NCBI GenBank assembly: GCA_964619725.1
Contig: CAZUFC010000001.1
Location: 140,396 to 204,395, forward strand
Reading direction: 5' to 3'
Source of the DNA: an uncultured bacterium
GTDB lineage: Bacteria; CSSED10-310; CAZUFC01
DNA: 64,000 nucleotides
The position numbers and the translations under genes are program-made. Positions within the stretch are counted from its first letter, which is position 1, and each line of letters starts with the position of its first letter. Below, one piece after another: positions 82-64,000 of this stretch. The notes beneath the pieces are model-generated. The model did no database searches. It was not told where the DNA came from and was given only the letters and a program-made list of their open reading frames with translations.

Positions 82-125
82 AGCCTGAGTCATGCGAAAG
101 GACTTTATCCTGAAAGGAGTTGGAC

Positions 126-902: not shown

Positions 903-1419
903 GATAGGACGGATTCTGGCTGCAGGCGTCGGTAATTCCGCCATGAGCGACGATTCCGTCGGAGTGCGGATTATCGAAGAACTGAGAAAACGGGAATGGC
1001 CGGAGAACATTGATTTTGTCATGCTTGATTATGATCCGGTCGACCTTTTAACGTTTTGCGAACAGTACGAATGTCTCGTATTAATCGATGCCGTATCGCG
1101 AAGCGGGAATCCCGGTCAATTGCATATAATAGCCCAGGAGGATTTCTTCAAAGAAGCAAAGCGAGAACGTCCGTGTTCGCTTCATCAACTGGGGCTTTCA
1201 GAAACGTTGAAGCTGGCCCGTGCACTGGGATACCGTTTCCGGTTTTTCCTTTTCGGCATCGAATTCGAAGATTTAAGTCCGGGATTCAGTCTCTCCCGAA
1301 AATTGGCCGACCGTTTTTCCGGCCTGGTTGATGAGATCGCTTCAGAGCTTTTAAAAATCTCTAATAAGAAATCGAAACAGGCGATCTGCAATGATCGTTT
1401 GGAGGTTGCAGTAAAATGA
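889..1419 (+). CDS. Hydrogenase maturation protease (HyaD/HycI family)
   Basis: GVGN...DDSVG, LIDAV and SLHQ motifs; sits in the hydrogenase operon. Confidence 0.9.
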   Translation: MNQNKIGRILAAGVGNSAMSDDSVGVRIIEELRKREWPENIDFVMLDYDPVDLLTFCEQYECLVLIDAVSRSGNPGQLHIIAQEDFFKEAKRERPCSLHQLGLSETLKLARALGYRFRFFLFGIEFEDLSPGFSLSRKLADRFSGLVDEIASELLKISNKKSKQAICNDRLEVAVK

Positions 1420-3309: not shown

Positions 3310-3320
3310 GGGAATGAAAT

Positions 3321-4106
3321 ATGAGTGAAAAACCTTCGTTATCAATTTACGGACTCACGGGTTGCGCAGGCGATCAGTTGACGATATTGAACTGCGAAGA
3401 TGAACTGCTTGAAATATTTGATGCGGTCGATATACACTCCTTTGTTATGGCTCAAACCGGAAACGTCGAAGATAAAGTGGACGTAGCCCTGGTTGAAGGT
3501 TCAGTCACGCAACCGCATGACAAGGAACATCTGCTGCAAATACGCGAAAACTGTAAGATGCTGGTCGCTATTGGCACCTGTGCTGTTTGGGGCGGCGTTA
3601 ATGCTCTCAGAAACGACGCCGACCGCAGACAGCTCATCAACATCGTCTACGGACCCGAAAACAAAAGCGTGAAATACCGGGAACCAGCGCCGCTGAGCGC
3701 CTTCGTTCATGTGGACTACGCAATTCCCGGATGTCCTGTTGAAAAATCGGAAATCCTGCACGCACTGGCATGCCTGGCTCAAGGCGTCGCTCCCGTTATT
3801 CCCAATTATTCTGTCTGTCATGAATGCAAAATCAGGGAAAATCGCTGCTTATTGATGGAAGACGGCGCCTTCTGCATGGGACCCATAACAAGAGGCGGCT
3901 GCGGGTCCAAATGTCCGAATCTCGGAAGGCCCTGCATAGGATGTCGAGGTCCTGTGGCGGATGCCAATATTCTTTCGGAAGCGAAAATTTTGAGGGAAAA
4001 GGGATATGGGTATCCGGAAATATTGAGACGGCTTCAAACATTCGCTTATCCTGCTAATGCCGTCAATGAAGTTAGAAAAAAATTTCTGCTTGATTCGAAA
4101 ATATAA
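3321..4106 (+). CDS. hydD: Group 3b hydrogenase small (delta) subunit
   Basis: VEGSV, GTCA, PGCP, VCHEC, CMGPITRGGC, CIGCRG. Confidence 0.9.
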   Translation: MSEKPSLSIYGLTGCAGDQLTILNCEDELLEIFDAVDIHSFVMAQTGNVEDKVDVALVEGSVTQPHDKEHLLQIRENCKMLVAIGTCAVWGGVNALRNDADRRQLINIVYGPENKSVKYREPAPLSAFVHVDYAIPGCPVEKSEILHALACLAQGVAPVIPNYSVCHECKIRENRCLLMEDGAFCMGPITRGGCGSKCPNLGRPCIGCRGPVADANILSEAKILREKGYGYPEILRRLQTFAYPANAVNEVRKKFLLDSKI

Positions 4107-4121
4107 GGGAGGAAAAAGGCG

Positions 4122-5420
4122 ATGCCTCATTCTTTTACTATAGACGTTAACGAAGTATGCCGGGTTGAAGGGCACGGTAATATCCACGTTGCAGTGAAAA
4201 ATAATGCCATAGAATACGTCAGGATGGGTATTCATGAAGGTCCCCGATTATTCGAAGCAATGTTCGTCGGCCGCAAATTCCAGGAGGTCCCCAAAATAGT
4301 TTGCCGTATCTGCGCCATCTGCTCAGCTCATCACGATCTGACCTCCATCATGGCACTGGAAAACGCCCTCGGCGGCGTCCGAGTCTCCGAACAGACGAAA
4401 CTTCTTCGAGAATTGCTTTTCCTGGGCGGACAGATCGAAAGCCATTATCTGCACATTTTTTTCCTGGCTCTGCCTGATTTCCTAGGATACGACGGTGCAG
4501 CCGCCATGGCGGCTGATTATCCCGAAGAAGTCAAGCTGGCGCTCAAAATGAAAAAATTGGGCAATACGATCCAGGAATTGGTCGGGGGAAGGGCAATTCA
4601 TCCCATAACTACCGATATCGGCGGTTTCTCAGACGTTCCTTCCGAAAAGGCATTGATGGATTTAAAAACCCAACTGGAAGAAGCCCTGGAAGGCTCCGTC
4701 AAAACAGCGGATATCCTGGCGGGAATAGATTATACGGATTATTACACTGACCAGGACTTCAAATACCTCGCCGTCAAACCGAACCACGATGATTTCGGAT
4801 TCATGGGCGACAAAATCATGGATTCCAACGGCGGACTGAATCCTGTCGAAAAATACAAAGATTACATCAGGGAATACGTCGTGGACCATTCCACGGCCAA
4901 GCAAAGTCTATACAATGAAAAGTCTTTCATGGTGGGCGCTATCGCCAGGACCAACCTCCTGGGAGACAGACTGAAAAACAGGGCGGCTGAAGCATTAAAA
5001 AAACTCGGCCTCGACGAATACTCTGTCAATCCCATTCATAACACTCCCGCCCAGGCCGTCGAAGGTATCTACTGCATCGAACGATGCATCGAAATAATCG
5101 ATGCCCTGCTGGAGAAAGGCGTCAAAAAGGAACCTCAAGCCGGCTATGAAGTAGTTCCGGGAACGGGAGCAGCCGCTACGGAAGTACCCCGTGGAACCCT
5201 TTATCACAGCTATTCCATCAATGAAAAAGGAATCATTACTGCCGCAGATGTTATTACCCCAACGGCTCAAAACCTGGCTAACATCGAATTCCACATGAGA
5301 CAAACAGTCCGGGGTACAAAAGATAAATCTCAGCAGGACATCCGGATGGAATTGGAAAAACTCGTTCGGGCCTATGACCCATGCATTTCATGTTCCGCTC
5401 ACGCCGTCTTCCTGGATTGA
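4122..5420 (+). CDS. hydA: Group 3b [NiFe] hydrogenase large (alpha) subunit
   Basis: RVEGH; L1 RICAIC; EVPRG; L2 DPCISCSAH followed by a short cleavable extension AVFLD. Confidence 0.93.
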   Translation: MPHSFTIDVNEVCRVEGHGNIHVAVKNNAIEYVRMGIHEGPRLFEAMFVGRKFQEVPKIVCRICAICSAHHDLTSIMALENALGGVRVSEQTKLLRELLFLGGQIESHYLHIFFLALPDFLGYDGAAAMAADYPEEVKLALKMKKLGNTIQELVGGRAIHPITTDIGGFSDVPSEKALMDLKTQLEEALEGSVKTADILAGIDYTDYYTDQDFKYLAVKPNHDDFGFMGDKIMDSNGGLNPVEKYKDYIREYVVDHSTAKQSLYNEKSFMVGAIARTNLLGDRLKNRAAEALKKLGLDEYSVNPIHNTPAQAVEGIYCIERCIEIIDALLEKGVKKEPQAGYEVVPGTGAAATEVPRGTLYHSYSINEKGIITAADVITPTAQNLANIEFHMRQTVRGTKDKSQQDIRMELEKLVRAYDPCISCSAHAVFLD

Positions 5421-5773: not shown

Positions 5774-7402
5774 ATGATGCGTTTCAGCAGTAGAACTCTG
5801 TTTATCGCGTTATTTTTTATTTTATATTGCGGCGCCGGGCTTTCGGGCGTTGAGGGTGCAGGCGGGTTTGAGCCCGTTGCAGCCGAATGGATCGATACGG
5901 CGGCCCATGGATGGATATTGAATTCGGAATATGTCGAGTGGGAGGATGCTGAAGCGGGGCGGCCGATTCCCCTGGAGAATCTGGACGGCGAGATTACGGC
6001 ATATCTTTATCCTGTTCATAAAGGAGCGGAGGTTAAGGGTTATGTGACCATATCCGCTATAAAGGCTTACAGCCCTTTGTTTGAAAGGGCTGCCGGTTCT
6101 GACTTTGTCGATATGGTTCGTCGTTACGGCATCGATTATGATCACAGGCTGCTGTTTTTGGGAAATTTATATTATTTCGTTGAAATCGAAAGCGATAACC
6201 ATAATGAACCTGCTTACATTCATTTGCCTTCATTGGAAGTTTACGAAATAGAAAAAATAGAAAAAATTCAGGAACTTTTCTATGAACGCGAGGAAGACCT
6301 CCTGAGGACATCCCGGGACCATTGGACCGATATGGAAAGAGGCGAATTTTTTACAGGAACGATAGGATCGAATGAAGTTCCCAATGCGGAAGGGTTCGGA
6401 TGGTATCGCGGTTGCGGTCCGACCACCATAACCATGATGCTGCGTTGTTACGGCCGTAACGGGTATCCTGCCATGAACGAAAACATGCAGGAATTTTACT
6501 GGTGCGGTTTAAGAAAGCGGACGGCGCGTCTGTTGCACGACCGGGTAGCCAATTCATGCGGAATGCCTTATGACAGTTGCGATTATAACCAGTACGGAGT
6601 AACGGTTTTCCAGATGCGCAATTCTTTTACCGATACGGCGGCAACTTATGGCTACAACATGGGTGCGACAGTCGACGGGACTCCCAGCTACAACGAATTC
6701 AAGGCTGAAATCGACCAGGGCGATCCGGTGGGGCTGGCGATCTATAATGACAATGGTCCTATGGATTATGACGGGCATGCCATCATGGGATACGGATATA
6801 TTTTCAACGCACAACATGTGGCTTTGGTTTTCGATACCTGGACCAGAAATCCCAGACAATACGCTCTCGAAAACCTGGCGGGATGGAACATGGTCAAGGC
6901 CGAACCCGGTTCGCCGCCGCAGAATACTCCAACGCCGACACCCACTCAACCTCCGCCGCCCACTTTCACGCCGACTCAAGGCTCCACCGCTACTCCGACG
7001 CCCTCTCTGACTCCAACTCCGTCCCCTACTTTTAATCCGCAAAACCCTTTCGTCATCCTGCAGCTCAACGGAGTCTTTTTTACTGAGGGAGACATGTTCG
7101 ACGTCTCACTTAACATCTGGAATCCGGAAGAATCCCAACTGACCTATATCATGATTGCTCTGGACCTCTCCGTGTTCGGACTTCCGGACCCCTACTATTT
7201 CTGGCCCCAATGGAACCAATCTCCGGCAATGGTTCCCAGAAGATTGCCGGCATCCAAAGTATATCAAGAAAAAATCCTGGGCTTCCAGTGGCCGGAAACT
7301 TCCGGTGAAGTATGGGGACTGAGATTCTGGACTGCAGTTTTCGATGCTTCAGGAGAAAACCTCTTCGCCAATTTATTCTTTATCGATTTTGGATATAAAT
7401 AA
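5774..7402 (+). CDS. Secreted papain-fold cysteine peptidase (C10/C39-like) with P/T linker and shared C-terminal domain
   Basis: GAGGAG RBS before ATG 5774; signal peptide; GCGPT (Cys), GHAIMGYGY (His), DTW; PT linker; C-terminus FQWPE...FGYK. Confidence 0.75.
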   Translation: MMRFSSRTLFIALFFILYCGAGLSGVEGAGGFEPVAAEWIDTAAHGWILNSEYVEWEDAEAGRPIPLENLDGEITAYLYPVHKGAEVKGYVTISAIKAYSPLFERAAGSDFVDMVRRYGIDYDHRLLFLGNLYYFVEIESDNHNEPAYIHLPSLEVYEIEKIEKIQELFYEREEDLLRTSRDHWTDMERGEFFTGTIGSNEVPNAEGFGWYRGCGPTTITMMLRCYGRNGYPAMNENMQEFYWCGLRKRTARLLHDRVANSCGMPYDSCDYNQYGVTVFQMRNSFTDTAATYGYNMGATVDGTPSYNEFKAEIDQGDPVGLAIYNDNGPMDYDGHAIMGYGYIFNAQHVALVFDTWTRNPRQYALENLAGWNMVKAEPGSPPQNTPTPTPTQPPPPTFTPTQGSTATPTPSLTPTPSPTFNPQNPFVILQLNGVFFTEGDMFDVSLNIWNPEESQLTYIMIALDLSVFGLPDPYYFWPQWNQSPAMVPRRLPASKVYQEKILGFQWPETSGEVWGLRFWTAVFDASGENLFANLFFIDFGYK

Positions 7403-7630: not shown

Positions 7631-7656
7631 GATCCTTGCCTTCAATGGAGAGAGTG

Positions 7657-9081
7657 ATGACTAATCAAGGTGAAAAAAAATGCCCTCTTTGCGGAAGACC
7701 CTTAGAAAAAGATAAAAAAATATGCGATTATTGTCTGGGGGTAGCTAAAGCGCCGAACGACGTGGCTCGTCTCAGGAAAGAATTACTCGTTGATTTTCCC
7801 CCTTTGAACGAAAGCGAAGAAACAACCGCGGCATCCAGCGCGGAAGATGAAAGCGGGGGAACTTCTGCTGGAGAAAAACGAAAAGAGAAACCTGAAAAAT
7901 TCCGACCGGCTTTCGGCGTCAGAAAATCGGAAACATCAGAAAAACAGGAATTCCTTGCCGAAGAACTGCATAAACAGGCTTTCGATTACCTGAACAGAGG
8001 AAAATTCGCCAAGGCCATTGAATTGTGGGAACGAGCGCTTGAATATGATCCGGAATTCGATCAGGCAAGAGACTATATAACCAAAGCCAGACAACTGATA
8101 GATGAAGCACGTGAAACATATCGACAGAAAAAACCGGAAACCAGAAAGAAAAAGAAGATACGTTTTTCACGCGTTTTGCTGACCACATTAATTTTATGCG
8201 CTATGTTCGCTGCAGGATATTATTATTTCAGGGAAAAAATTAACAAGATACGCGAGGAGGCCGAAACGCTCGATATCAAGCCTAAAATGGAGAGGATCGA
8301 AGCGGTTGAGGTCCATGGAATGGTTCAGATTCCTGCCGGAAGCTTTCCCATGGGCAAACCGGAAGATGATCCGGGAGCAAGTAAAGACGAAAAACCAAAA
8401 AGGAGCGTTTACCTGAACGAATATTACATGGATAAATACGAAGTGACCAATTCCATGTACGCCCGGTTCATTAACGAGCGAGGTTTGGGAGAGCCGGGGA
8501 AGCAGCCCTGGATCGATATCAGAAATCCGGCATGCAAAATCAGGAAGTTCGGCAACCAATTCAAGGCGGTACCGGGATATGAAGATTATCCCGTCGTGGC
8601 GGTGAATTGGTTCGGCGCCATGGCTTTCGCTCGTTGGGCCGGCAAAAGACTACCCACTGAAGCGGAATGGGAAAAAGCGGCAGGAGGAACCCTGGGTTTG
8701 AATTATCCCTGGGGAAACGAATGGGAGCCCAACATGGCCAACCTGGAAGAACGAAATACGCAAAGTCCGATTTCTGAAACCGTGCCGTTAGAGGACATCA
8801 GTCCCTACGGACTTTATCATATGGCCGGCAATGTTATGGAATGGTGCGCCGATTGGTACCAGGATAACTATTATTCTCGAGGTTTCGGCAGGAACCCCCA
8901 AGGTCCGCCTCAGGGAAAATTTAAAACGAAAAGAGGCGGCAGCTTCAAAACCAGCTCATATCTCAGCCGTAACTCTCATCGCGGTTTTGCCTCTCCAAGA
9001 GAATACGCTGAAGACCTGGGTTTCCGTTGCGCATCCTATCAAGCCCCTAAGCGGGATATCGTTGACTTGGAAACCCCCTGA
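7657..9081 (+). CDS. Zn-ribbon/TPR/TM protein with a C-terminal FGE-sulfatase (SUMF1-like) domain
   Basis: CPLC...CDYC; one TPR; TM helix; FPMG, YEVTN, RLPTEAEWEKAA, GNVMEW, RGGS, LGFRC; GGAG RBS before ATG 7657. Confidence 0.85.
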   Translation: MTNQGEKKCPLCGRPLEKDKKICDYCLGVAKAPNDVARLRKELLVDFPPLNESEETTAASSAEDESGGTSAGEKRKEKPEKFRPAFGVRKSETSEKQEFLAEELHKQAFDYLNRGKFAKAIELWERALEYDPEFDQARDYITKARQLIDEARETYRQKKPETRKKKKIRFSRVLLTTLILCAMFAAGYYYFREKINKIREEAETLDIKPKMERIEAVEVHGMVQIPAGSFPMGKPEDDPGASKDEKPKRSVYLNEYYMDKYEVTNSMYARFINERGLGEPGKQPWIDIRNPACKIRKFGNQFKAVPGYEDYPVVAVNWFGAMAFARWAGKRLPTEAEWEKAAGGTLGLNYPWGNEWEPNMANLEERNTQSPISETVPLEDISPYGLYHMAGNVMEWCADWYQDNYYSRGFGRNPQGPPQGKFKTKRGGSFKTSSYLSRNSHRGFASPREYAEDLGFRCASYQAPKRDIVDLETP

Positions 9082-18136: not shown

Positions 18137-20818
18137 ATGATTAAAATAGGAAGGCCATCACCGAAAAAATTTTTTTTGCCTCTTTTTCTGGCCGGCTTGT
18201 TTTTTTGTTTTACAGGCCCTTCAAAAAAAACATGGGCGCAGGGATTATCCGCATCCGATCCGGCGGACGGCGAAAACCGTGACAGGATGTTTGAAGAATA
18301 CAGAGACAATCAATACCGCCGATCATTTACCGAAGAAGAACGGTTCAGACGTGAATTCCAGGAAAAAGCCGAACGACTGGAACGACTGGAAACCAAACGT
18401 TCACCCGTATATTTCGATGCGGAGGTTCAGGAATATATTGAAGAGGAGAACCTGTTCATTTTGACGGGAAATGCCCGCATTATGAAAGATGATTTCTCCC
18501 TGTCGGCCGACAAAATCATCATTAATGACTGGACTCAGGACTTGACTGCCGAAGGCGATGTTTTTATTAAATTCGGCGAAGATGAAATAACATGCGATAT
18601 GGTTGAGTATAATTTTGAAACCAGACGGGGAAGGCTTTACAATTGCCGCGGCGTTTTGACTCCGAGCGTTTTCTTTGACTGTTCGCTTTTGGAAAAACTG
18701 GGTGATTTTGAAAAAACCGGAACGCCGCAATATTACATGGAAAACGGGACTTTCACCTCGTGCAAAGGACCGGTTCCCGACTGGAAAATTACCAGTACTA
18801 AAGCTTTAGCTCGTCAGGAGCATTATTTACACCTGAACAATCCGATCTTATGGATCAACCGGCTGCCGGCGGTTTACTTTCCCTATTGGGTCTATCCGAT
18901 CAAAACGGAACGAGCGACGGGATTCCTGGTTCCCACTATAGCCTATAACGCCAATCTGGGATTCGTCATGATGAATGAATTTTTCTGGGTTCTGGCAGAC
19001 AACGCAGACGTTACCTTCGGACTGGATTATTATTCTAAGACGGGATTGCGAGAGGATATAGATGCACGCTTTGCTTTCGATCATTTTTCCCGGGGAAGCT
19101 TTCATTTCAAGCACATTGAAGAGAGGCAGTCCCTGAGGTCGGACAGACCTGCCAGTGAACGTTGGAGATTTAATTATTATCAGAACCATGAGTTCGGATG
19201 GAACGTTCGGGGCACGGCACACCTTAATTTCGTAAGCGATGAATATTTCGATCAAGATTACAACTGGCAGCTCGATTACATGACGCATAGGGACCTGGTT
19301 TCCGGACTCTCATTAACTAAAACCTGGACCAGGGCTTCCATGACGATGGAAGCTGACTACACCAAGGACCTGGATGAAAACCTCCAGCGCGACCTTCAGC
19401 GCATACCCAAAATTTATTATAACTCAGGACTTCAAAAAATCGGCAAAAGCATCTTACGCTATTTCTTCAACGCATCGTTTGAGAATCTTGTACAACAAGG
19501 GCTGGAATCGTACTACCGGGAACTGGACTATATAAACGACGTGCCGTCTGGCTCTTTACTGGTCAAAGATTACCTGGACATACAGACCTACCGGAGCCAT
19601 CTTGTGCCCGGAATGCAACTCGTTTTCAACCAATTGCCCTGGCTCTCCTTTACACCGCGCTTTCAATATGAAGCGACTTTATGGAGCAAAAAGCGTATCG
19701 TGGACGAATCTTTTCCTTACGGGACCTGGGCGACTTTGCCGGAATCAGGTCCGGATATTAAACAGGAAGGCTTTCTCAGAGGAACAGGAGAATTCGGAGA
19801 CGACGGCATATGGCGGCAGCTTTATCGAACCGGATTCGATCTCCAGGGACCCCGTTTCTTTCGAATTTTTCCTGCTGAGTTCGGTCGTCTCATGAAAATC
19901 AAACATCTCATATATCCCGAAGTCAATTATAACTTCGTGCCGGAAGTCGAACAGACCAATATAATGCAGTATGACGGCCTGGATATGATACGCCCCAGCA
20001 ACGCAATCACCTATTCTCTCGTCAATACAATTCTCGGAAAAGTGAAACAACATTCAGACACTCCAGGAACTTATTCCTCCTCCATGAATGACGAATCAGA
20101 GGAAAAAATGGAGCTGGGTTCATCAGGCGTTCTGCCGGAAGATGCTGAAACGCCGGAAGGCGTCTTCCCCGAAGACGATGACTACGAAAAAAAAGATAAA
20201 ACTACCATCAGAGAATTTGCCCGTTTTACCGTCAGCCAGACTTACGATGCCTCCAAAGAAACCCTTTTCCGGGAAAAGCAGGAGGAATACGACTCCGGCG
20301 AAAGCCTGGAAAAGCCGACTCGGTATGATTACCCTTACAGCGACATCAGATTCAACGCTATCGCACGTCCTTATGCTTATATCGACTTTTCATCCAACCT
20401 TTACCTGGACCCCTACGAATCTCGTCTGGCGAGAACCGATCTGAATTTAAGATATTATGCCGGGCGATGGGCTGTTAAACTTGGCTGGAACTACAGCGTC
20501 AATGATTATGAAAATCCTAACGACGATTTCAAAACTGTGACGCTCGAATGCGGCGCACGCCTGAGTCAGGCCTGGTCGACCGAAGTTTCGCTTTATTACG
20601 ATCAACATAAAGATTTTTTCAATCATTGGATGACGAACATTACTTACCATTCCCAGTGCTGGTCCGTTACGCTACAGACGCTTTACCGGCAAAAAATTCT
20701 TGATGGAGTCTGGCCGGACTGGCAAACGGAAGATGAATACCAGTTCGGTTTTTCGTTGAGTTTAAAAAATTTGGGAGAAGTAGGTAGCCTGGATTTGGGA
20801 GAATTCAAGTTCTATTGA
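18137..20818 (+). CDS. lptD: LPS-assembly outer-membrane protein LptD
   Basis: OstA-like N-terminal domain; FTSC...PDW; RATGFLVP; beta-barrel ending YHSQCWSV...LKNLG. Confidence 0.85.
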   Translation: MIKIGRPSPKKFFLPLFLAGLFFCFTGPSKKTWAQGLSASDPADGENRDRMFEEYRDNQYRRSFTEEERFRREFQEKAERLERLETKRSPVYFDAEVQEYIEEENLFILTGNARIMKDDFSLSADKIIINDWTQDLTAEGDVFIKFGEDEITCDMVEYNFETRRGRLYNCRGVLTPSVFFDCSLLEKLGDFEKTGTPQYYMENGTFTSCKGPVPDWKITSTKALARQEHYLHLNNPILWINRLPAVYFPYWVYPIKTERATGFLVPTIAYNANLGFVMMNEFFWVLADNADVTFGLDYYSKTGLREDIDARFAFDHFSRGSFHFKHIEERQSLRSDRPASERWRFNYYQNHEFGWNVRGTAHLNFVSDEYFDQDYNWQLDYMTHRDLVSGLSLTKTWTRASMTMEADYTKDLDENLQRDLQRIPKIYYNSGLQKIGKSILRYFFNASFENLVQQGLESYYRELDYINDVPSGSLLVKDYLDIQTYRSHLVPGMQLVFNQLPWLSFTPRFQYEATLWSKKRIVDESFPYGTWATLPESGPDIKQEGFLRGTGEFGDDGIWRQLYRTGFDLQGPRFFRIFPAEFGRLMKIKHLIYPEVNYNFVPEVEQTNIMQYDGLDMIRPSNAITYSLVNTILGKVKQHSDTPGTYSSSMNDESEEKMELGSSGVLPEDAETPEGVFPEDDDYEKKDKTTIREFARFTVSQTYDASKETLFREKQEEYDSGESLEKPTRYDYPYSDIRFNAIARPYAYIDFSSNLYLDPYESRLARTDLNLRYYAGRWAVKLGWNYSVNDYENPNDDFKTVTLECGARLSQAWSTEVSLYYDQHKDFFNHWMTNITYHSQCWSVTLQTLYRQKILDGVWPDWQTEDEYQFGFSLSLKNLGEVGSLDLGEFKFY

Positions 20819-22730: not shown

Positions 22731-22784
22731 TTTTTTACTTTCAGCGTAAGGTATTTCATCATATGCGCTGGTTGGGAGAAAAAA

Positions 22785-37634: not shown

Positions 37635-40600
37635 ATGAAAACCAAAAGGCTGAAGGGAATTACCGCTCTCTTTTTGATATTTTCAGCCTGCATTTGCGCG
37701 GCTGATCAAAATGAATTATGGTCACAGGACAATTTTGTTTCTGATGCCTGGTACTTTGATAAGTATTTTAACCGGACGGAACGCTTTAAGGTAGAAGGAA
37801 CAGAAATAATCGTCAAACTGGACGAATATGATGTCGCGAAATCAACGCTGCTGGCTTCGGTTTATGATATTGAGGAACTCCATGCATTGGACGAAGAATA
37901 TTATTTCGTTCATTACCGGATTCCGTTAAAAAAGGACATATGGGCTGTTTTAAAGCGTATTAATGCAGAAAAGGATGTTGCTTCTGCCTTTCCCGTTTTA
38001 ATTGACATGAGAGGAGCGAAGAAACCGGTTGTGGGAAATGAAATGACCGTGCGTTTTATTTCAGGACTGACGGAATCGGCATGTGAGGCGATAATTGAGG
38101 AGATGGGCAGTCGTGTGGTTCAGGACCATTGGACTCCGGGTTATTATACGATAACGGTTCCTGCCGGGATGACTTTATTTGAAGGAATACGGGCTTACAA
38201 TGCCCGTTCGGACGTTAAATTCGCAGAATTTTTTCTGATAGGTTATGACGACGCATTATTCATTCCGAATGATCCTGACTTTGATGATCAACAGAATTTA
38301 TTGAATACGGGCCAGGTGCCGTCGTGCGACGATTGTCCCCCGTTCGGAGATCATGACATAGACGCAGTTACGGCCTGGGACATAACCCGGGGCGATCCCG
38401 ACATCATAGTGACTATTATCGATTCGGGATGTGATTTGGATCATCCCGATCTCGTGGATAATTATCTGGACCGTGACGGAGAGGATTGGAATTTTGCGAG
38501 CACGAGCAGCGACGTCCCTGAAGACACCTACGGCCACGGCACGTCCTGTGCCGGCATAGCGGCAGCAGTGAGCGACAATGCAGAGGGAGTGGCGGGAATA
38601 GCGAATCACTGCCGCATTATGCCTTTGAAAATTGACCTTTCTTCAGGCGCCAATCAGAACAGAGCGGATGCGATTAATTACGCAGCCAGTCGTATAGGAG
38701 ATTTCGACGGTATCGTTATGAGCAACAGTTGGCGAATGAGTTCAGGTTCTTATACGGCGGTGTATGCAGCGATTGAAAGCGCCAAGGCTGCGGGTTGCGT
38801 GGTCTGCTTTGCAGCGGGAAATGAGAATCAATCCCCGGTGGAAGCGCCATCGGACAGCGAACATTGCATCTGTGTGGGAGCGTTAAGTCCTTGCGATGAA
38901 AGAAAAAGTTACAGCAGTTGCGACGGTGAATCCTGGGGATCAAGCTACGGGAACGCCCTGGATGTCGCAGCGCCCGGCGTGTTGATTCATACGACGGAAA
39001 TAGGAGGCGGATACACTGGAACGTTCAATGGAACATCCAGCGCCTGCCCGCATGTGGCTGGAGTTTGTGCGTTAATATTGTCGATAGCTCCTAATTTGAC
39101 GCCTGATGAACTTCAGGAGGCGCTGCAGGATGGATGCGACGATATTGATCCTCCAGGTTGGGATACGGAAACAGGTTACGGGCGGGTAAACGCATATAAT
39201 TCACTCAATCTGGTTTCAGGCGTTTTCATGAATAAAAAAGCCTACCAATGCGAAGACACCGTCTATGTTTCAGTCAGAGACTCAGAGCAGTCCGTCAGTA
39301 TTGAAGTCGAAGTCACCAGCAATACGGAAACTTTAGGTGAAACATTGACTCTACTCGAGATTCCGGGAGATGCCGGTTTATTTGAAGGCTCAATCGTATG
39401 CTCGGAAATACCTCCCTCTTCAGGAGACGATATTATTTCAGTCGTTCATGGCGATGAAATTACAGTTTATTACCCCGCACTAGACAAATCAGCATCATCC
39501 GCCGTTGATTGCTCTGCTCCGGACATATCCGAAGCGACGCTCGATAATATCGGCGATATCTTCGTTGAAATTTCGTGGGCAACCGATGAACCGGCTACGA
39601 CAAAAATCGTTTACGGTATAGGAACGCCCGATCAGTTTTATGAAGATTATGAATTGACTGATGCACATGAAGTGAGAATCGACGGCTTAACCGACTGCGA
39701 AAATTATGTTTTTTACGTAGAATCTTCTGACGCCGCCGGCAATACGGCCATCGACGACAACGGAGGAACATATTACTCCTTTACGACTCAAGATCGCGTC
39801 ATTTTGCTCGAAGCCGATATGGATACCGATCCCGGCTGGTCGACCGACGGACTCTGGGAATGGGGTCAGCCTGCGGGACAGGGCGGAGACCACGGAGGAC
39901 CGGACCCGAGTTCGGGTCATACGGGAAATAATGTTTATGGGTATAATCTGAACGGCGATTACACAAACTATATGGGCGAAACGGACCTGACTACGCCGGC
40001 TTTCGATTGCAGCAATGCCGATAATGTTAAATTGAGTTTCTATCGGTGGCTCGGAGTGGAACGAAGCTATTACGATCATGCTTACCTGAGAATATCCACG
40101 AACGGTTCCTCCTGGACGACTGTCTGGCAGAATCCCGACGCAGAAACTTATGACGGGCAATGGGTCCTTTACGAATACGACATAAGTCAATTTGCCGACG
40201 GAGAACCTGCCGTTTACCTGAAATGGGTTATGGGAACAACGGATTCAGCCTGGGTTTATTGCGGCTGGAACATCGACGACGTGGTCGTCTCTTACACCAT
40301 CCCATGCCAGACTTCACCTACGCCCACTGCTCCACCCACCTTTACTCCGACTCTCACTCCTACGGCTACACCTACCAGAACACCCACCTATTCGCCCACT
40401 CCCACACTTTCGCCGACGCTTTCACCTACCGCCACATTAACCCCCACCACCACCACCACCGTTACCCTCTCTCCAACCTGCTCGCCGTCTTTAACGCCGA
40501 CCGATCCGCCTTCCTATACTCCCACAGTAATCATCACTGCGACGCCATCTATAACTCCAACTTTAATTGAATTCACGCCTTCCGTTACACCTACTCATCC

Positions 40601-40961
40601 TCTGGAAGTCGGGGTGGAATTGATCATCAGCGATGAAATGTTTCATCCGGGAATGCTTTTCGAGCTTAAAGCTTTTATAGAAAATCCAGGTCCAGAAACA
40701 TACGAAGAACAACCTTTCGTCATTCTTCTCGATGTACTGGGCATGTACTTCTATTACCCGTTCTGGGATACAACCTTCTCCTTCGAACCCCTTAATCTGG
40801 GCGTCGAAACAATAGAGAAAAATATACTGACGTTTACCTGGCCGGAAACGGGCGAAGCAGCGCTCGACGGCATAGTCTTCTACGGCGCACTGCTTACCAG
40901 TGACTTTAACGATATCCTGGGAAGATTCGATGCTGAAGAATTTGGCTATGGACCCGAATGA
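37635..40961 (+). CDS. Secreted S8 subtilase with FN3-like and jelly-roll domains, P/T linker and shared C-terminal domain
   Basis: Signal peptide; IIDSG, HGTSCAG, GTSSACP triad; PT linker; FTWPE...FGYGPE. Confidence 0.9.
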   Translation: MKTKRLKGITALFLIFSACICAADQNELWSQDNFVSDAWYFDKYFNRTERFKVEGTEIIVKLDEYDVAKSTLLASVYDIEELHALDEEYYFVHYRIPLKKDIWAVLKRINAEKDVASAFPVLIDMRGAKKPVVGNEMTVRFISGLTESACEAIIEEMGSRVVQDHWTPGYYTITVPAGMTLFEGIRAYNARSDVKFAEFFLIGYDDALFIPNDPDFDDQQNLLNTGQVPSCDDCPPFGDHDIDAVTAWDITRGDPDIIVTIIDSGCDLDHPDLVDNYLDRDGEDWNFASTSSDVPEDTYGHGTSCAGIAAAVSDNAEGVAGIANHCRIMPLKIDLSSGANQNRADAINYAASRIGDFDGIVMSNSWRMSSGSYTAVYAAIESAKAAGCVVCFAAGNENQSPVEAPSDSEHCICVGALSPCDERKSYSSCDGESWGSSYGNALDVAAPGVLIHTTEIGGGYTGTFNGTSSACPHVAGVCALILSIAPNLTPDELQEALQDGCDDIDPPGWDTETGYGRVNAYNSLNLVSGVFMNKKAYQCEDTVYVSVRDSEQSVSIEVEVTSNTETLGETLTLLEIPGDAGLFEGSIVCSEIPPSSGDDIISVVHGDEITVYYPALDKSASSAVDCSAPDISEATLDNIGDIFVEISWATDEPATTKIVYGIGTPDQFYEDYELTDAHEVRIDGLTDCENYVFYVESSDAAGNTAIDDNGGTYYSFTTQDRVILLEADMDTDPGWSTDGLWEWGQPAGQGGDHGGPDPSSGHTGNNVYGYNLNGDYTNYMGETDLTTPAFDCSNADNVKLSFYRWLGVERSYYDHAYLRISTNGSSWTTVWQNPDAETYDGQWVLYEYDISQFADGEPAVYLKWVMGTTDSAWVYCGWNIDDVVVSYTIPCQTSPTPTAPPTFTPTLTPTATPTRTPTYSPTPTLSPTLSPTATLTPTTTTTVTLSPTCSPSLTPTDPPSYTPTVIITATPSITPTLIEFTPSVTPTHPLEVGVELIISDEMFHPGMLFELKAFIENPGPETYEEQPFVILLDVLGMYFYYPFWDTTFSFEPLNLGVETIEKNILTFTWPETGEAALDGIVFYGALLTSDFNDILGRFDAEEFGYGPE

Positions 40962-51072: not shown

Positions 51073-52446
51073 TCATTCGCCCCAACCGAATGTCCAGGAA
51101 TCCATGATGCCTCGCACGTCTGTAATTTCATAATTTGTAAAGGCGGCGAACCACATGATATTTCGTGCCGATCCGGCATTTTCCGGCCAGAGGAATTCTT
51201 CCACGACGGTAAATCCACCCGTTCCGGGGGTAAGGTCGATTTCATAATAATTAAATTCAGAAAAATCAGGAGCGAAATAATATTCTCCGAATACTTCCAG
51301 AACGACGAAAAGAGGAATATTTTCATACTGAATCTGATTGGGATTTTCAAAGAAAACGTTGCAGGAGCAGACGTCATTCGGATAATAGAAATTGGAGGGC
51401 ATCCAGAGCATTACAGAAACGGGTTCTGTTTGGGGCGTAGGCGAAGGCGGCACCGGAGTGTCCGTGCCTGGTACGGTTGACGGCGATATGCAAGGGGTAA
51501 AAGTTTCCGAATGTGAGGGAGCAGGAGTGGAACTAGCAATTAAAGTAGATGTCGGAGAGGGAGTCGGTGATGGGGGAGAAGTCGGCGTAATGCTGGGCAG
51601 GGGCGTATTTGAGGGTAGAACAGTCGGCGTTGGTGAAGGCAAAAAATCTTCGATTACGCAGGCTCCCCATCCTTGAAAGGCGGGAGCCGTTATTTCCAGT
51701 AAGATTTCGCCCTGGCAGTCGAACCGGTAAATTTTTCCGAGGGTTCCTTCTATACTTTCCGCTGTCCAGAAAAAATTTCCGTCAAACCAAAGCCCTCGGC
51801 AATGTTCAGAGGGCGGCTGAAAAGAATTTTCCGGGATTTCAGCAACAGCAGGCCAGTCGTCCAGTGTCCAGCATTTAACTACACTTGAATCCGTGAGCGT
51901 CCAGTAATATTCTCCATCCCAGGCCGCCCCCCACACATCTTCATCGTATGAAGCCGTCCCCTCTTTTTCTCCGTCAATGTAATATCGGTTCAAATCCCAT
52001 TCGGTTGCATAAAAGAAAGTTCCGTCGAACGCTACGTCGTAAAAATAATACAGGCTCCAGTCATCAATAATGACTTCCAGATCGCCGGCGTTGAGATCAA
52101 CTTTGTAAAGGCGGGGGGCGAACGCTTCTGCAGCATAAAGTTCATTGTTGACGGCCGCCAGGTCTACGAATCTGTAAAATTCATATTCGAAATAATTCAC
52201 AACATTGCCGTTCATATCGAGTATGTAGATGCGTGAAAGCCACTCCTGGTTGGCCGTAAAAATAATCGCATCGGTGTCTTCCAGTTTTGATCCACGTTCT
52301 AGTTCGCCAGATGAAATAATTTCCTGCATTGCATCGTTCTGGCGGTAGTTTTTTCCGTCTGGGGAGGATATCGGCGAAGAGGCATCCGCAACAGAAACAA
52401 TAAAGTAAAAGAAAAGGAGGATTATGACGTTAATTGCTTTCAACAT
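51073..52446 (-). CDS. Secreted beta-propeller-like protein with P/T linker and shared C-terminal domain
   Basis: Signal peptide; repeated AFDG/AWDG/WFDG blades; PT linker; FLWPE...FGWGE. Confidence 0.8.
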   Translation of the reverse strand: MLKAINVIILLFFYFIVSVADASSPISSPDGKNYRQNDAMQEIISSGELERGSKLEDTDAIIFTANQEWLSRIYILDMNGNVVNYFEYEFYRFVDLAAVNNELYAAEAFAPRLYKVDLNAGDLEVIIDDWSLYYFYDVAFDGTFFYATEWDLNRYYIDGEKEGTASYDEDVWGAAWDGEYYWTLTDSSVVKCWTLDDWPAVAEIPENSFQPPSEHCRGLWFDGNFFWTAESIEGTLGKIYRFDCQGEILLEITAPAFQGWGACVIEDFLPSPTPTVLPSNTPLPSITPTSPPSPTPSPTSTLIASSTPAPSHSETFTPCISPSTVPGTDTPVPPSPTPQTEPVSVMLWMPSNFYYPNDVCSCNVFFENPNQIQYENIPLFVVLEVFGEYYFAPDFSEFNYYEIDLTPGTGGFTVVEEFLWPENAGSARNIMWFAAFTNYEITDVRGIMDSWTFGWGE

Positions 52447-57615: not shown

Positions 57616-60600
57616 ATGAAAAAGATGGGGAGAAGAAGTTTAATTTTGCTTCTGTTTCTTGCGATTTTATCGTTGTTTCCATTATCGATGATTTCAGCAA
57701 AGGAAGGCAATGAAAAGGAGGCAGCGGAGCGTGAGGAATGGTGGCCATACGAGTTGAAGCCGCCTTACGGTAAAGCGGAGAATCCTTTTTCGTCAGATGT
57801 CATAAGACTTGACGTGGGAGAAATTGATCGAAGTTCCGGAATGCCTTCAATGCCGTCCGAATTATTATATGATGGAGAATCTGCGGGGCGAATTCACTGT
57901 ATATTGCAATTCAGAGGCCCTGTATACGAATCATGGAAGAGCGAAGTGCGAAAAAGGGGTGTAACATTATATAACTATGTGCCCAATTATGCATTTTTGG
58001 CATCGCTTGAATCCGATCGAAAAGAATCGCTAATGGAGCTTGAAGAAGTATCCTGGATCGGCCGTTATCATCCTGCATTCAAGATAAGTCCTGATATCGG
58101 TAAAATGCCGTTAACTCATGCGGACCGGAAAGGCGAGAAGGAATTTTATTTAGTTGTAACTTTATTTGAAGACGAAGACCTGGAAAGAGCGGCGAAAGCG
58201 ATAGGGGTAATAGGCGGCAAGGTATTGGATCGTGTGGACAGTGGGACCCGGAAGTCGTTGGAGATCAAGTTGCTTCCGGAAAAGATACCTGATGTGGCAA
58301 AAATGGAAAGCATCAAATGGATAGAAGAGAAGGGCGAATATTTTACAGCGAACAATAAGACTCAGGAGGTAGTACAATCAGGCAGCGTATCGGGCGGGAC
58401 GCCGATATGGGGAGAAGGATTGCACGGCGAGGGACAATTAATAGGGCATTTAGATTCAGGCGTAGATATCGACAGTTGTTTTTTTTATGATCCTGTAGTG
58501 GGCAATAACCCCGGTCCGAGTCATTTCAAGATAGAGGCTTATAGAAATTACGGGAGCGGAGCGCAATATGACGGTTGCGTGGAAGGTCACGGAACGCATA
58601 CTGCAGGAACGGCTGCGGGTTGGGCTGCTTACAACGGATATGCGGCGACTTATGACGGAATCGCTTATGAGGCTCGACTAACGGTAGGCGATATAGGACG
58701 AGATACGTCGAGCGATTGTTATTATGGTTACCTCTATCCCCCATCCTCTCTGACTCAGGTTTATCAGGACACATTAAACGACGGCGGTTATTTACATACG
58801 AACAGTTGGGGCGGCAATTCAAATTCTTATGATTCATATTGTACGGATACAGATGATTTCATGTGGGACAACAAGGATTTTCTTATTTTATATGCTGCAG
58901 GCAATTCGGGACCGGGAAGCGGGAGCGTTCATTATCCCGGCACATCCAAGAACATCGTGTGCTGCGGAGGATCGGACCAGGACCCCAATCAGGATGATAT
59001 GTATTATTACAGCGGTCGAGGTCCCGTGAGCGGAAGTAACCGTTTGGCTCCATCGGTATGTGCTCCGGCAACGGATACGGCGGGGAGCGGAATAACTTCA
59101 GCCCGTTCAGACGGCAGCGTAGATTCGACCATGGAATGTCAGGTGGTCGGCGGATGGTCTGGTACGAGTATGTCGACGCCTGCCATTGCGGGATCGGCAG
59201 CGCTGATTCGTCAATATTTTACGGAAGGCTGGTATCCGTCAGGCAGCAAGACGTCGTCCGATGAATTAACTCCGACAGCAGCGCTGATGAAGGCATCTCT
59301 AGTAAACAGCGCGGTTAACATGTCGGGAACGACGGCGCGTCCATCAAATAATCAGGGTTGGGGACGCATATTGTTGGACAATGTTTTGTATTTCAGCGGC
59401 GAATCCAAAAAATTGTACATCGAAGACGATACAACGGGCATTTCGACGGGCGAAACAATAGATTTCGATATAACGGTGAATTCATCTTCTGAGCCTTTGA
59501 AGGTAACTCTGGTATGGACGGACAGGGCCGGCAATTATTTAACGAATGATTTGGATTTAAGAGTATGGCGAGGATTTTCCAACTGGTACGGGAATAATTT
59601 TACGAACGGCTGGTCCAACACTAATTCGACGGCAGACCGGACCAATCCTGTGGAATGTGTTTATTTAAGTTCTCCAGCGACGGGAGGATATACGATAAGA
59701 GTAAGCGGTTATAATGTGCCGAGCGGGGAAGCGGGAGGCAATCAGCCTTTTGCATTGGTGGTAACCGGGGACATAACGCCGGGATCAGGAGCCACCCCGA
59801 CGCCGACGGTGACGGCAACTCGCACGCCGACCAGAACGCCGACGCGAACGGCTACGCTGACGCCGACCAGAACGGTAACTCTCACCCCGACGAGAACGCC
59901 GACCCGGACATTGAGTCCGACGATCACATCAACCCTTACGCCCACACGAACGCCGACGAGGACGCCGACCAGAACGCCGACCCATACTTTTACTCCCGGA
60001 CCCACATCAACACCGACATTCACTCCAACCCGATCTCCCACGCCCACATTTACCGATACGCCGACGCGGACGCCGACCGTCACGCTGTCGCCTACTCCTC
60101 CGCCGACCTGGACGCCTACACTGAGCCCCACTGTGACTTTAAGTCCGACGAGAACGTGGACCAGAACGCCCACGAGGTCTCCTACCGTCACCTTATCGCC
60201 GACGCGTTCGCCGACCGGAACACCCACTCGAACGCCGACGGTCACTTCAACGCCTACGGCTTCGCCCACAGGTTTGGGTTTCAATCGACGCGTTACGAAT
60301 TTTACGACTAATGAGAGGCATCCGGACATGGTGACGGACAGCCAGGGTAATATTTTTATTTTATATGATTATGAACAAAGTTCGACGAATCGGGACATAT
60401 ATTCGGCCAAATCGACCGACGGCGGTCGAACGTGGAATTCTACGGCTGTTCTCAACGATTCACGTGATACTTTACGTCCGGTTGTCGATTGTTCAGATAA
60501 CGATGATCTTTATGTTACCTTTGAAAATAATTATACCGGCGATAATCATTTCCGTTATATGAAATCGACCGATTCAGGCTCGACCTGGACAGCGGGCAGT

Positions 60601-63600
60601 TATTCCGTTACGGGAATGGAAAACGAGAATCTGGATAATCCCGATATCGCTGTTTCGGGAAGCGGCAGCAACGCCGTCATTTATGCTGCCTTTGATTATC
60701 CCGTAGGAAACAACAGAGATATCCGCTACTTTTTCAGCGACGACGGAGGTTCTTCCTGGACGCACGGAACGCTTGACTGGCAAAATTGGAATAATGAGGA
60801 TCTCTATCCGAAAATCGTAATGGGTCCCAATAATGTTTCTATTTTGTGGGAAGACGAGTATTCCTCCAACGATCATGATATCGTGTCTTATTACAGGGAT
60901 TTGACGGGAGGCAGTTGGACCTATGTCTGGGTCGCCGCTTCCTATGACGATGAGCGTTATCCTGCTGCCACGGCTTACGGTTCTGAATTCAACGTGGTCT
61001 ATCATTATGATAATACGCTTGAAGCGGCACGTTCCACAAATGAGGGCGCTTCTTATACGGACGGATATTCAGTGGATTCCGGCTCTCACCCATCGATAAC
61101 CCGTAGCGGAACCACAGTAAGATCGGCTTATTTTCAATCAGGTTCTATCGTTTATTCTGAATCGTCTAATAGCGGAACAAGCTGGAGTTATATCGATGAG
61201 GCGACTGACGGTTATCACAGCGTATCGGATGACTTGCGCGTCGTAACGTGCAATTATGGAGGCTCACAGCCTTTTGTCGCCTGGGAAGATCAGAGAAACG
61301 GCCACTATGATATTTATTTTGACTGGCCTCTTCCAACGCCGACTCCTACCTATACGGAAACACCCGTCGACACTCCGACGACAACCCCGACTTTCACCAG
61401 GAGTCCAACCCTCTCGCCGACGAACACGGCATCCCCCACCAGAACGCCCACAAAAACGCCGACAGATACACCCACACGGACCCCGACGCTGATTCCCACG
61501 GACACTTTAACGCCTACGGTCAGTCCCACGCGAACGCCGACGCCTACATTTTCTCCCACACGAACTCCGACATCAACCTATTCGCCTACTTTTACGCCCA
61601 CAATAACGCTTTCCCCGACATTAAGCCCGACAAGTTCACCGACCCTCTCACCCACCGATACTCAGACAGCAAGCCCGACAAGAACGCCGACAGATACACC
61701 CACAAGGACCCCGACGCTGACTCCCACGGACACGTTAACGCCTACGGCCAGTCCCACGCGAACGCCGACGCCTACTTCTTCTCCTACACGAACGCCGACA
61801 TCAACCTATTCGCCTACGTTTACGCCCACAATAACGCTTTCCCCGACATTAAGCCCGACAAGTTCACCGACCCTCTCACCCACTGTTACTCCGACAGCAA
61901 GCCCAACAAGAACAGCGACATATACTCCCACACGAACCCCGACGCTGACTCCCACGGACACGTTAACGCCTACGGCCAGTGCCACGCGAACGCCGACAGC
62001 GACTGGTCTGCCTTCGTCAACGCCGACTTCGTCGCCTACATCAACCCTTTCGCCGACATTGAGTCCGACTATTACTCCTACTCTTTCCCCAACGCCAAGC
62101 CCCACTCTTTCAGCTACCGAAACAGCTTCACCGACGCGCACTCCAACTGTCAGCCCGACTTTCACGATGTCGCCGTCTCCCACACGTTCGCCGACTTTCA
62201 CCCAATCTTTAACTCCCACCAGAACTTTATCGCCAACCTTAACTCCGACATATACTCCTACGATGTCGCCTACTCGGACGCCCACGCATTCCCCAACTTT
62301 AACCTTTACTCCCTATCCCACGCCAACCCTCTCGCCGACCAACGCTCCTTCCCCAACGTCCACAGCCTCTCCAACCGCTACTCTTTCTCCGACCAGAACC
62401 TCAACCGATACCCCTACCAATACTCCAACTATTACGAATACCCCGACCGCCACGAGTATCTCCGGCAATATCCAGGTGACTGATTTAAGCGAAAACGAAC
62501 GACATCCGAATATGGCGACCGATTCTTACGGCAATATATATATCGTCTATGATTATGAATTTTCCGATTCTGATCACGACATCTACGTCGCCAGGTCGAC
62601 AGACCATGGTTACACATGGAATTCTTCCGCTGTGCTGGATGATTCCCGGGATACGTTGCGGCCGGCGATAGCAAAGTCTGAAAATGACGATCTTTATGTC
62701 GTTTTTGAAAATAACGAAACGTCGGACAATCATTTCCTTTTCGCCAAATCCACTGACGGAGCGGCAAGTTGGAATGTCGGTTCCTATTCCGTTTCAGGCC
62801 TTGCAAACGAAAACATGGATAATCCGGATATTTCCGTTTCAGGCAGCGGACAATCTGCCCTGATATATGCCGTTTTCGATTACCCGGTTTCTGGAGACCG
62901 GGACATCGCTTATTTTTTCAGCGAAGACGGCGGAACAACTTGGAATCATGGTACGCTCGACTGGCAGACATGGAACAATGACGATCGGTACCCGAATGCC
63001 GTTTTGAGCGGCGACAATGTTTCCATCATTTGGGAGAATGAATATTCTGCGAATGATCATGATATAGTATCTGCATACAGACCCAAGACAGGCGGAGCCT
63101 GGACCAATGTATGGATAGCCCTTTCTTATGATGATGAACGATACCCGGCTTCGGCGAGTGAGGGTAGTGAGATTAACGTAGTTTATCATTATATGAATGA
63201 ACTGCAGGCCGCCAGGTCAGTTGATGAAGGAGCGAGTTTCACGGAAGGATATACAGTGGACAACGGTTCGCATCCCTCATTATCGAGATCAGGCAATCAA
63301 TTACGTTCTGCATTTTTTGATTCAGGATCGATACATTATACCCGTTCGCTTGACAGCGGCGTAAACTGGACGTATGTCGATGAAGCGACAGATGGAAATC
63401 ATACAGTTACGGATGATGTAAGCGTAGTCGACATCAATTTCGGGGCATCTCTTCCTTATACGGCATGGGAAGACCAGAGAAACGGCAATTTCGATATATA
63501 TTTCGACTGGCCGGGTGAAATAGGCTCTCCCACTCCATCGGCTACTTCCACGCCATTAACGGGAACAGCAACGCCCGAACCGACGGGATCGCCGGCGACC

Positions 63601-64000
63601 GGAACAGCGACACCGACAGGAGCAACGCCGACAGGCACATCATCTCCCCTTCCCACGAATACGCCGACCCGAACACCAACGGATGTGCCCACAAGCACGC
63701 TTTCGCCGACTTTGACTCCAACGCTCTCGCCCACAGAGGCGCCGACATTGACGCCAACTAATACCCCAACTCGAACCCCCACGGACGCTCCCACAAGCAC
63801 GTTTTCGCCGACTTTGACTCCCACGCTTTCGCCCACAGAGGAGCCGACATTGACGCCTACTAATACCCCGACTCGAACACCCACGGACGTTCCCACAAGC
63901 ACGTTTTCGCCGACTTTGACTCCAACGCTTTCGCCTACAGAGGAGCCGACATTGACGCCTACTAATACACCGACACGAACACCAACGGATGTCCCCACAA
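57616..64000 (+). CDS. Giant secreted S8 (KP-43-like) protease with two Asp-box beta-propeller domains and three P/T tracts; runs off the window (>2,100 aa)
   Basis: ATG 57616 after GGGAG; signal peptide [23 protein letters not shown] (~58447), GHGTHTAG (~58585) and GTSMSTP (59161) in the same frame; STDGGRTW-type Asp boxes; same frame at 60241 and 62461 (frame spot-checked, not every codon). Confidence 0.9.
61461..62000 (+). repeat. ~228-bp coding tandem repeat (about 2.3 copies) within a P/T tract
   Basis: GACA(G/T)ATAC registers at 61461, 61689 and 61917. Confidence 0.8.
63660..64000 (+). repeat. 102-bp (34-aa) coding tandem repeat, at least 3.3 copies
   Basis: GAAC(A/C)CC registers at 63671, 63773, 63875 and 63977. 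Confidence 0.85.

Follow-up and report, generated by a model that had tools for sequence, protein, structure and literature searches.

A recurrent C-terminal domain on exported proteins of the uncultured phylum CSSED10-310 is a candidate localisation module

Three exported proteins encoded in one 64,000-nucleotide stretch of DNA from an uncultured bacterium of the phylum CSSED10-310 (assembly GCA_964619725.1, contig CAZUFC010000001.1, positions 140,396 to 204,395 of the forward strand; hereafter the window, with position 1 as its first letter) end in similar sequences, each placed behind a linker rich in proline and threonine (P/T linker). What is this shared ending, and what does it do for the proteins that carry it? 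An initial reading of the letters (hereafter the original prediction) had proposed a lineage-specific sorting or anchoring signal. We describe the ending as a domain family and compare it with the tails that replace it on paralogous proteins, and we weigh several explanations of its role. In our preferred reading, to which we give a probability of roughly 0.55, the domain is a localisation module of the retention type on exported proteins, most likely acting at the cell surface.

The domain and its carriers in the source genome

On translation, the three endings are C-terminal stretches of 116-119 residues (Table 1). We aligned them and obtained pairwise identities of 24-25%; 17 columns are invariant (V, L, NP, L, V, G, Y, P, P, F, WPE, A and FG). 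All three proteins have a hydrophobic N-terminus and a P/T-rich stretch directly before the domain, and their cargo parts are mutually unrelated, which agrees with the original prediction of one terminal domain shared by proteins of different function. The first cargo matches Peptidase_C39_2 weakly over residues 260-396 (E 6.4e-6, 27.2 bits vs a cut-off of 24). The third had been called a beta-propeller, a label that we could not confirm: this cargo gave no Pfam or NCBIfam match, and its single-sequence AlphaFold model is all-beta at low confidence (predicted local distance difference test, pLDDT, 49.8).

We built a profile from the three window domains alone and searched the source genome with it (9.17 Mb in 344 contigs, 90.9% complete, 6.5% contamination), scoring the best 150 of 305 candidates. 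This yielded at least 150 further matches, all with E <= 4.8e-13, and the likeness of the three domains is therefore not due to chance. An iterated hidden Markov model (HMM) was then run over the 29,275 stop-to-stop open reading frames (ORFs) of at least 80 residues, resulting in a total of 223 domains on 222 ORFs, far beyond the three originally noticed. A non-overlapping set of 6107 genes retains 216 of these ORFs, or about 3.5% of genes.

The domain ends at most 8 residues from the stop codon in 210 of its 223 copies, most of them at 1-3 residues. Among 244 public homologues, which carry the name "candidate division CSSED10-310 bacterium", it lies at most 8 residues from the C-terminus in 235, at 9-30 residues in 2 and internally in 7. 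The expectation that it would always be C-terminal thus describes most copies and fails for some: in 2 proteins of the source genome it comes right behind the signal peptide, with their other domains downstream, and in 3 it is internal. In several of the internal public copies, a formylglycine-generating enzyme (FGE)-sulfatase domain comes after it, and the layout of an internal or N-terminal domain followed by an FGE-sulfatase-like one recurs in the source genome (G000:C179:522-2942, C153:3829-6570) and in homologues P0166, P0185 and P0188. A gene combining tetratricopeptide repeats (TPR) with an FGE-sulfatase domain also lies in the window at 7636-9081, directly downstream of the first domain gene.

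Signal peptides were called with home-made rules in a strict and a lenient version. Using the strict rule, 159 of 204 carriers had a signal peptide vs 364 of 1500 background genes, and using the lenient rule 182 of 212 vs 714 of 1500, so that carriers are enriched in exported proteins as had been proposed; only 8 of the 182 carriers that pass the lenient rule are lipoprotein-like. Proline, threonine and serine together make up at least 40% of the 40 residues upstream of the domain in 137 of 213 copies, against a genome background of 17%. The cargo is very diverse and includes gingipain-like C25, S8, C1, M14 and M28 peptidases, PAD, beta-helix/PMP adhesin-like proteins, propellers and FGE-sulfatase domains.

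We then compared the domain with known families. The three window domains, searched as such and within the full proteins, gave no Pfam or NCBIfam match in the domain region at E <= 1, and a search of 30 family members at E <= 10 returned only isolated noise (2 Pfam and 3 NCBIfam families, each hit by one member, with best E-values of 0.03 to 0.21 and none related to the secretion system of type IX, T9SS). No characterised domain of these databases was thus found behind the family. A sequence search of the PDB with the family profile had a best E-value of 0.57, and the ESM Atlas returned unnamed clusters only. AlphaFold2, run on the first window copy with an alignment of 30 sequences, predicted a seven-stranded immunoglobulin (Ig)-like sandwich with good confidence (pLDDT 89.6, predicted TM-score 0.79), for which Foldseek found a factor XIII barrel as its best match (E 7.6e-4). 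VIA-align placed a GH2 Ig-like domain first (Z 10.0), with 46 chains at Z >= 8, among them CARDB (Z 9.3) and the carbohydrate-binding domain of Wzt (Z 8.5). The structural check suggested with the original prediction therefore gave a confident fold with generic relatives.

Over 207 full-length copies, the most conserved positions are N24 (93%), L39 (94%), P49, W51, F75, W77 and P78 (98%), together with F110 near the end. The family has a length of about 113 residues and is recognised by the motifs PGD, NPGP, YFWxPxW and FxWP[DEN] and by FG[WY] near its end. According to the predicted strand order, the conserved residues fall in loops 1, 3 and 5 and in the C-terminal F-G-[WY]; since the predicted strands run up and down, these loops and the C-terminus would sit together at the tip opposite the N-terminal linker, which suggests that this distal tip may be the docking face of the domain. 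The highest 18-residue hydropathy window over the 203 C-terminal copies has a median of 1.11 and reaches 1.8 in only 3 of them, and LPxT[GAS] occurs in none of the 203 (no search was aimed at the sortase gene itself), in agreement with the original statement that the domain has neither a transmembrane helix nor an LPxTG motif. At least two sequence subtypes exist, both of them in the window; one has a cysteine in strand 2, an "LWMP" start and a "WTFGWG" end, and cysteine is found at profile position 16 in 27% of copies.

Exchange with an exosortase-type tail

The domain closes 14 of the 26 Peptidase_C25 genes of the source genome. Among the remaining 12, at least 6 have a P/T linker of the same kind, followed by [IV]-P-[AV]...G, a transmembrane helix and basic residues. 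Using a regular expression for such tails (class motif P-[IV]-P-[AST]x4G, a transmembrane helix, then K/R), we retrieved 203 ORFs from the source genome, of which 182 have at least 200 residues and 118 have a P/T linker. Their overlap with the 222 domain ORFs is zero. The tail class includes 25 ORFs of more than 2000 residues; examples of the class are G000:C8:95371-114582, a frame of 12,092 residues on C34, and C134:13003-13455.

To pair the two classes, cargo regions of the domain class were compared with the 182 tail proteins (at least 150 residues aligned, E <= 1e-15), and a tail-class paralogue was found for 86 of 202, with identities of up to 55-68% over about 850-1050 residues. In one such pair the cargo is 66% identical over 874 residues and both proteins have P/T linkers, which lead to the domain in one and to the tail in the other. 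Because paralogues exchange the domain for an exosortase-type tail, the domain is, as read from these genes, a "choice-of-anchor" module. The original prediction had also stated that PEP-CTERM was lacking; this stands for the window domains, which have no such tail, and fails for the genome, which holds about 182 PEP-CTERM-like ORFs as well as an exosortase. The window also encodes, at 48236-49978 on the plus strand, a protein with a "choice-of-anchor N" domain (NF038141, 45.7 bits vs a cut-off of 40) and DUF11 repeats, which lacks a C-terminal anchor of both classes.

The source genome has a single gene of the exosortase/archaeosortase family (TIGR04178, 65.7 bits vs a cut-off of 23), with a short product of 190 residues that is nearest to archaeosortase B and XrtH and below every named subfamily cut-off. 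This short form occurs in all 14 genomes of the phylum that we searched, domain-free ones included, and full-length forms occur only in two domain-free genomes (G001 and G002). The short protein presumably serves the tail class, and the two together may be a new exosortase subtype and its signal; as a partner of the domain we rejected it, given its presence in all 14 genomes and its fit to the tail class. In domain-free G001, 6 of the 10 C25 ORFs examined end in VPTLS...G, a transmembrane helix and a basic tail; one of these tails scores 19.7 bits on IPTL-CTERM (cut-off 20.5), and another ORF has a tail region that matches midcut-by-XrtH (E 3e-5). A tail model built from G001 was noisy. The P/T-PIPA tail class has 2 to 21 matches in the other domain-bearing genomes vs at least 142 in the source genome, so that in most of the clade it is the domain that dominates as terminal module.

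The giant ORF that starts at 57616 (Table 1) had been predicted to end in the domain as well. The end of the window coincides with that of contig C1, and this ORF lacks its 3' end as a result. Its last 400 nucleotides (63600-63999) consist of a 102-nucleotide tandem repeat encoding PT-rich linker, which matches only itself and the first 470 nucleotides of contig C75 (G000:C75:1-470), at 78-93% identity. On C75 the frame is open at the contig start, contains the same PTxTPT repeat and ends in "...MPVPSFDSAGIALLILVLSAAILFFR...", an exosortase-type tail made of PVPSFDSAG, a transmembrane helix and R; the tail model matches this frame end too. We infer that C75 is likely the continuation of C1, a join that is not part of the assembly, which the repeat breaks. 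Since the continuation on C75 ends in a tail, the giant ORF probably does so too, and the prediction of a terminal domain is probably wrong.

The giant ORF has a PMT_2-type gene (GT-C glycosyltransferase fold, protein-O-mannosyltransferase-like) directly upstream. PMT_2-type genes of the window, at 11967-13631 (minus strand) and 55168-56847 (plus strand), adjoin genes whose P/T linkers are huge, and genes for rhamnose and GDP-sugars are found at 21046-26690; the P/T linkers may be O-glycosylated.

Distribution, envelope and export machinery

Across the 14 phylum genomes, the domain was found in 11, which represent four families, with 60 to about 250 copies each (per carrier genome, scored matches number 60 to more than 113 and first-look candidates 76 to 259). 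The smallest carrier genome noted has 2.6 Mb and 76 first-look candidates. The domain is absent from G001 (96% complete), G002 (87%) and G004 (93%). Outside the phylum, weak matches came from 3 of 387 genomes (E 7e-10 to 2e-6, 1-2 copies each), located C-terminally on a 543-residue protein and on a C25 peptidase and N-terminally, after the signal peptide, on a 339-residue protein; the domain region of these three proteins has no Pfam match. With 11 of 14 genomes in the phylum vs 3 of 387 weakly matched elsewhere, the family is lineage-restricted, much as had been proposed. A search of 1.84 billion cluster representatives gave 2414 matches at E <= 1e-3, of which 1944 reach E <= 1e-10.

CSSED10-310 is a Gram-negative phylum and sister to Acidobacteriota (PMC8248873); the same paper, the only one devoted to the phylum, is silent on the domain. 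The original prediction had also placed the domain in a diderm, which the organism is: the window encodes LptD. Secretins have 2 to 7 matches in each of the 14 genomes, and as candidate partners of the domain they were not discriminating for this reason.

We searched for the T9SS, whose cargo also ends in a folded C-terminal domain. The source genome has no match to Por_Secre_tail (TIGR04183/PF18962), SprA or GldM, and SprA is lacking from all 14 phylum genomes without even first-look candidates. As controls, SprA matched in 72 of 187 outside genomes (43 above the cut-off), and Por_Secre_tail had 3 to 137 matches in five T9SS-bearing genomes. An hhalign comparison of 30 domain sequences with 23 T9SS C-terminal domains gave a probability of 0.45% over 8 aligned columns. 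Because SprA is missing from all 14 genomes and the profiles show no likeness, the domain is not part of the T9SS. The only PorV-like candidate (17.5 bits vs a cut-off of 250) was rejected as an ordinary FadL/TodX protein beside a gene for a short-chain dehydrogenase/reductase (SDR), with a 37%-identical match in domain-free G002. Peptidase_C25, the gingipain/PorU family, is expanded in this phylum that has no T9SS (8 to 26 per domain-bearing genome), and in some of these genes the gingipain layout is complete, propeptide and Ig domain included. As a clade-specific sortase, C25 was not discriminating, being present in all 14 genomes.

Table 1. Positions of the domain genes and of other features discussed in the text (window coordinates; domain copies include the stop codon)
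Feature	Position	Strand	Remarks
Gene 1, exported cysteine-peptidase-like protein	5774..7402	+	likely start ATG 5774; mechanical ORF from TTG 5630
Gene 1 linker, P/T-rich	6899..7042	+	P/T/S-rich run 6899-7051
Domain copy 1	7043..7402	+	profile match E 1.2e-51
Gene 2, exported S8 subtilase with fervidolysin-type prodomain	37635..40961	+	PF00082 E 1.9e-45, PF22148 E 2.6e-8
Gene 2 linker, P/T-rich, about 95 residues	40287..40571	+	P/T/S-rich run
Domain copy 2	40605..40961	+	profile match E 2.1e-53
Gene 3, exported protein of no known family	51073..52446	-	low-confidence all-beta model
Gene 3 linker, P/T-rich	51409..51648	-	P/T/S-rich run
Domain copy 3, subtype with Cys in strand 2	51073..51423	-	profile match E 2.6e-49
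LptD, outer membrane with lipopolysaccharide (LPS)	18137..20818	+	PF19838, PF04453
Giant exported protein with S8 domain, BNR repeats and very long P/T linkers	57616..63999	+	cut by contig end

At its start, the window also encodes (120-5420, plus strand) a response-regulator/GCV_H fusion followed by a [NiFe]-hydrogenase cluster with a HycI protease, a Fer4 protein, an FAD/NAD subunit and the small and large subunits.

Role of the domain and comparison with known systems

Taken together, these data point to a new, phylum-restricted family of Ig-like beta-sandwiches, as modelled, that most likely decides the destination of exported proteins. Under the retention reading, carriers would be exported by Sec and folded in the periplasm, and would then cross the outer membrane by a route other than the T9SS, for which the secretins found in every phylum genome may be considered. 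The domain would hold its cargo at the cell surface by non-covalent docking onto an envelope component, with the conserved distal tip as docking face. The copies placed after a signal peptide or internally speak for a docking module with a fold of its own and less for a terminal export signal; such non-terminal copies are typical of docking or anchoring modules and hard to square with a signal that needs a C-terminal position.

Several observations weigh against this reading. No receptor, sortase or translocon emerged from our searches, in which the sole PorV-like candidate turned out to be the FadL protein mentioned above, and gene enrichment around 216 domain genes was unspecific: recurrence is limited to one collagen-repeat family (15 of 55 members, p 4e-4) and is probably an effect of low complexity, and TonB receptors, NACHT and RHS proteins are also found among the neighbours. 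The signal-peptide rules are home-made, with a background rate of 48% for the lenient version, and the P/T linker is not universal, proline, threonine and serine staying below 30% of the 40 upstream residues in 59 of 213 copies. The fold matches are generic Ig-like sandwiches and uninformative on function, and the argument for a distal tip derives from predicted strand order and not from coordinates.

The retention reading has to be weighed against three others. The domain could be a cleavable outer-membrane export signal in the manner of the T9SS, recognised by an undiscovered translocon or shuttle and removed by a peptidase, possibly with a lipid or glycan anchor taking its place. Its slot, fold class and cargo spectrum are those of T9SS cargo (gingipain-type C25, PAD_porph, S8), 96% of copies are terminal with a conserved F-G-[WY] at the extreme C-terminus, and there are many C25 peptidases (26 copies, with NCBIfam PorU matches below the cut-off), members of the family to which the T9SS sortase PorU belongs. 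We nevertheless find this explanation rather doubtful: the domain also sits behind signal peptides and inside proteins, public homologues included, C25 peptidases are equally present in domain-free genomes, and neither the search for SprA in the 14 phylum genomes and for GldM, PorV and Por_Secre_tail in the source genome nor the hhalign comparison brought up a T9SS relative.

A general ligand- or substrate-binding or stabilising Ig-like domain, similar to carbohydrate-binding modules (CBMs) or to CARDB and with no role in localisation, would explain the structural neighbours found by VIA-align, the conserved aromatic residues, the somewhat flexible position and the distant single-copy relatives in 3 of 387 genomes of other phyla. 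It appears improbable to us, the cargo range being far too broad for a single substrate, the domain being exchanged for an exosortase tail on close paralogues and its copy number being high even in a 2.6-Mb genome. More improbable still is a dockerin-like assembly module that would plug many enzymes onto a protein scaffold. The dockerin counts of cellulosome producers are comparable with the copy numbers of the domain, and one homologue combines a cohesin domain with it; against this, the source genome encodes dockerins and cohesins of its own (11 and 31 matches, respectively), PF00404 does not match any of 30 domain members, the 11 dockerin matches lie in other ORFs, and no repeated receptor module was identified. 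These cohesins and dockerins, found here in a non-clostridial diderm (e.g. C64:26256-27383, C154:3811-5004, C15:19787-20965), are of interest in their own right: several cohesin ORFs (on C97, C20, C8, C2 and C19) are matched by the exosortase-type tail model as well, pointing to a putative surface-anchored, cellulosome-like scaffold.

The data leave room for a larger claim. The domain might be the address tag of an undiscovered outer-membrane secretion and attachment system of CSSED10-310, a functional analogue of the T9SS of independent origin in a lineage without SprA, with its own receptor and processing enzyme and 60 to 250 cargo proteins per cell, running parallel to the exosortase pathway. 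We put this forward as a tentative possibility, and the word system stands for a hypothesis here: of the sorting or anchoring system first proposed, what holds is that the domain occupies the slot of a recognised sorting signal on close paralogues, and what is missing is a translocase, sortase or receptor. Other C-terminal signals, such as the T9SS C-terminal domain, PEP-CTERM and LPXTG, were each the starting point from which a dedicated machine for secretion or attachment was discovered. In the same way, the domain points to a receptor or export route, for which the 11 carrier and 3 non-carrier genomes allow phylogenetic profiling. It marks 3-4% of genes in a whole clade of an uncultured phylum without a T9SS and thereby defines an exoproteome that consists mainly of proteases, adhesin-like proteins and hydrolases. 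Its HMM can serve to annotate protein clusters, more than 2400 in number, that bear the label "hypothetical" at present.

As a kind of feature, C-terminal domains that sort or anchor exported proteins are well known. What appears to be new is this family, its lineage and its independence from the T9SS: it is lacking from the searched copies of Pfam and NCBIfam, and the accessible portions of the literature that we found on CSSED10-310 and on PEP-CTERM and T9SS sorting do not describe it.

Known systems resemble the domain to different degrees. With CARDB (PF07705; PDB 3idu) it shares a seven-stranded sandwich (VIA-align root-mean-square deviation 2.8 over 96 residues) and an N-x-G type loop after strand 2. 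The resemblance is at the level of the fold only, however, as PF07705 is unmatched at E <= 10 in 30 members, the motifs NPGP, YFWxPxW, FxWP[DEN] and the FG[WY] end are the domain's own, and CARDB is not mass-expanded as a terminal tag. Dockerin-cohesin pairs and S-layer homology (SLH) modules follow the same logic of cargo, linker and anchoring module, in high copy number and mostly but not always in terminal position, whereas their fold and sequence are unrelated and true dockerins and cohesins coexist with the domain in one genome.

The type A C-terminal domain of the T9SS likewise folds as a beta-sandwich and closes Sec-exported proteins at their extreme C-terminus, a trait common to several unrelated systems, and serves dozens to hundreds of proteins per genome with overlapping cargo types (gingipain-like C25, PAD, S8, beta-helix). 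According to PMC7468200, T9SS cargo proteins lose their C-terminal domain before they become attached to the cell surface. One carrier in our set is a complete gingipain-type protease, with propeptide, C25 catalytic domain and Ig domain, in which the new domain sits where Porphyromonas has the T9SS C-terminal domain. The new domain differs in being longer (about 113 vs about 75-90 residues), in its lack of sequence or profile similarity to the T9SS domain, in tolerating N-terminal and internal positions and in occurring in a phylum without SprA in all 14 genomes (GldM and PorV were sought only in the source genome, and not found there).

PEP-CTERM, IPTL-CTERM and VPXXXP-CTERM signals, which work with an exosortase or archaeosortase, consist of a short motif, a transmembrane helix and basic residues and depend on a membrane enzyme for their processing, whereas the new domain is soluble and folded, without a transmembrane helix. 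These signals and the domain nevertheless occupy the same slot, behind the same P/T linkers, on paralogous cargo and in the same genome, and they share a choice-of-anchor logic.

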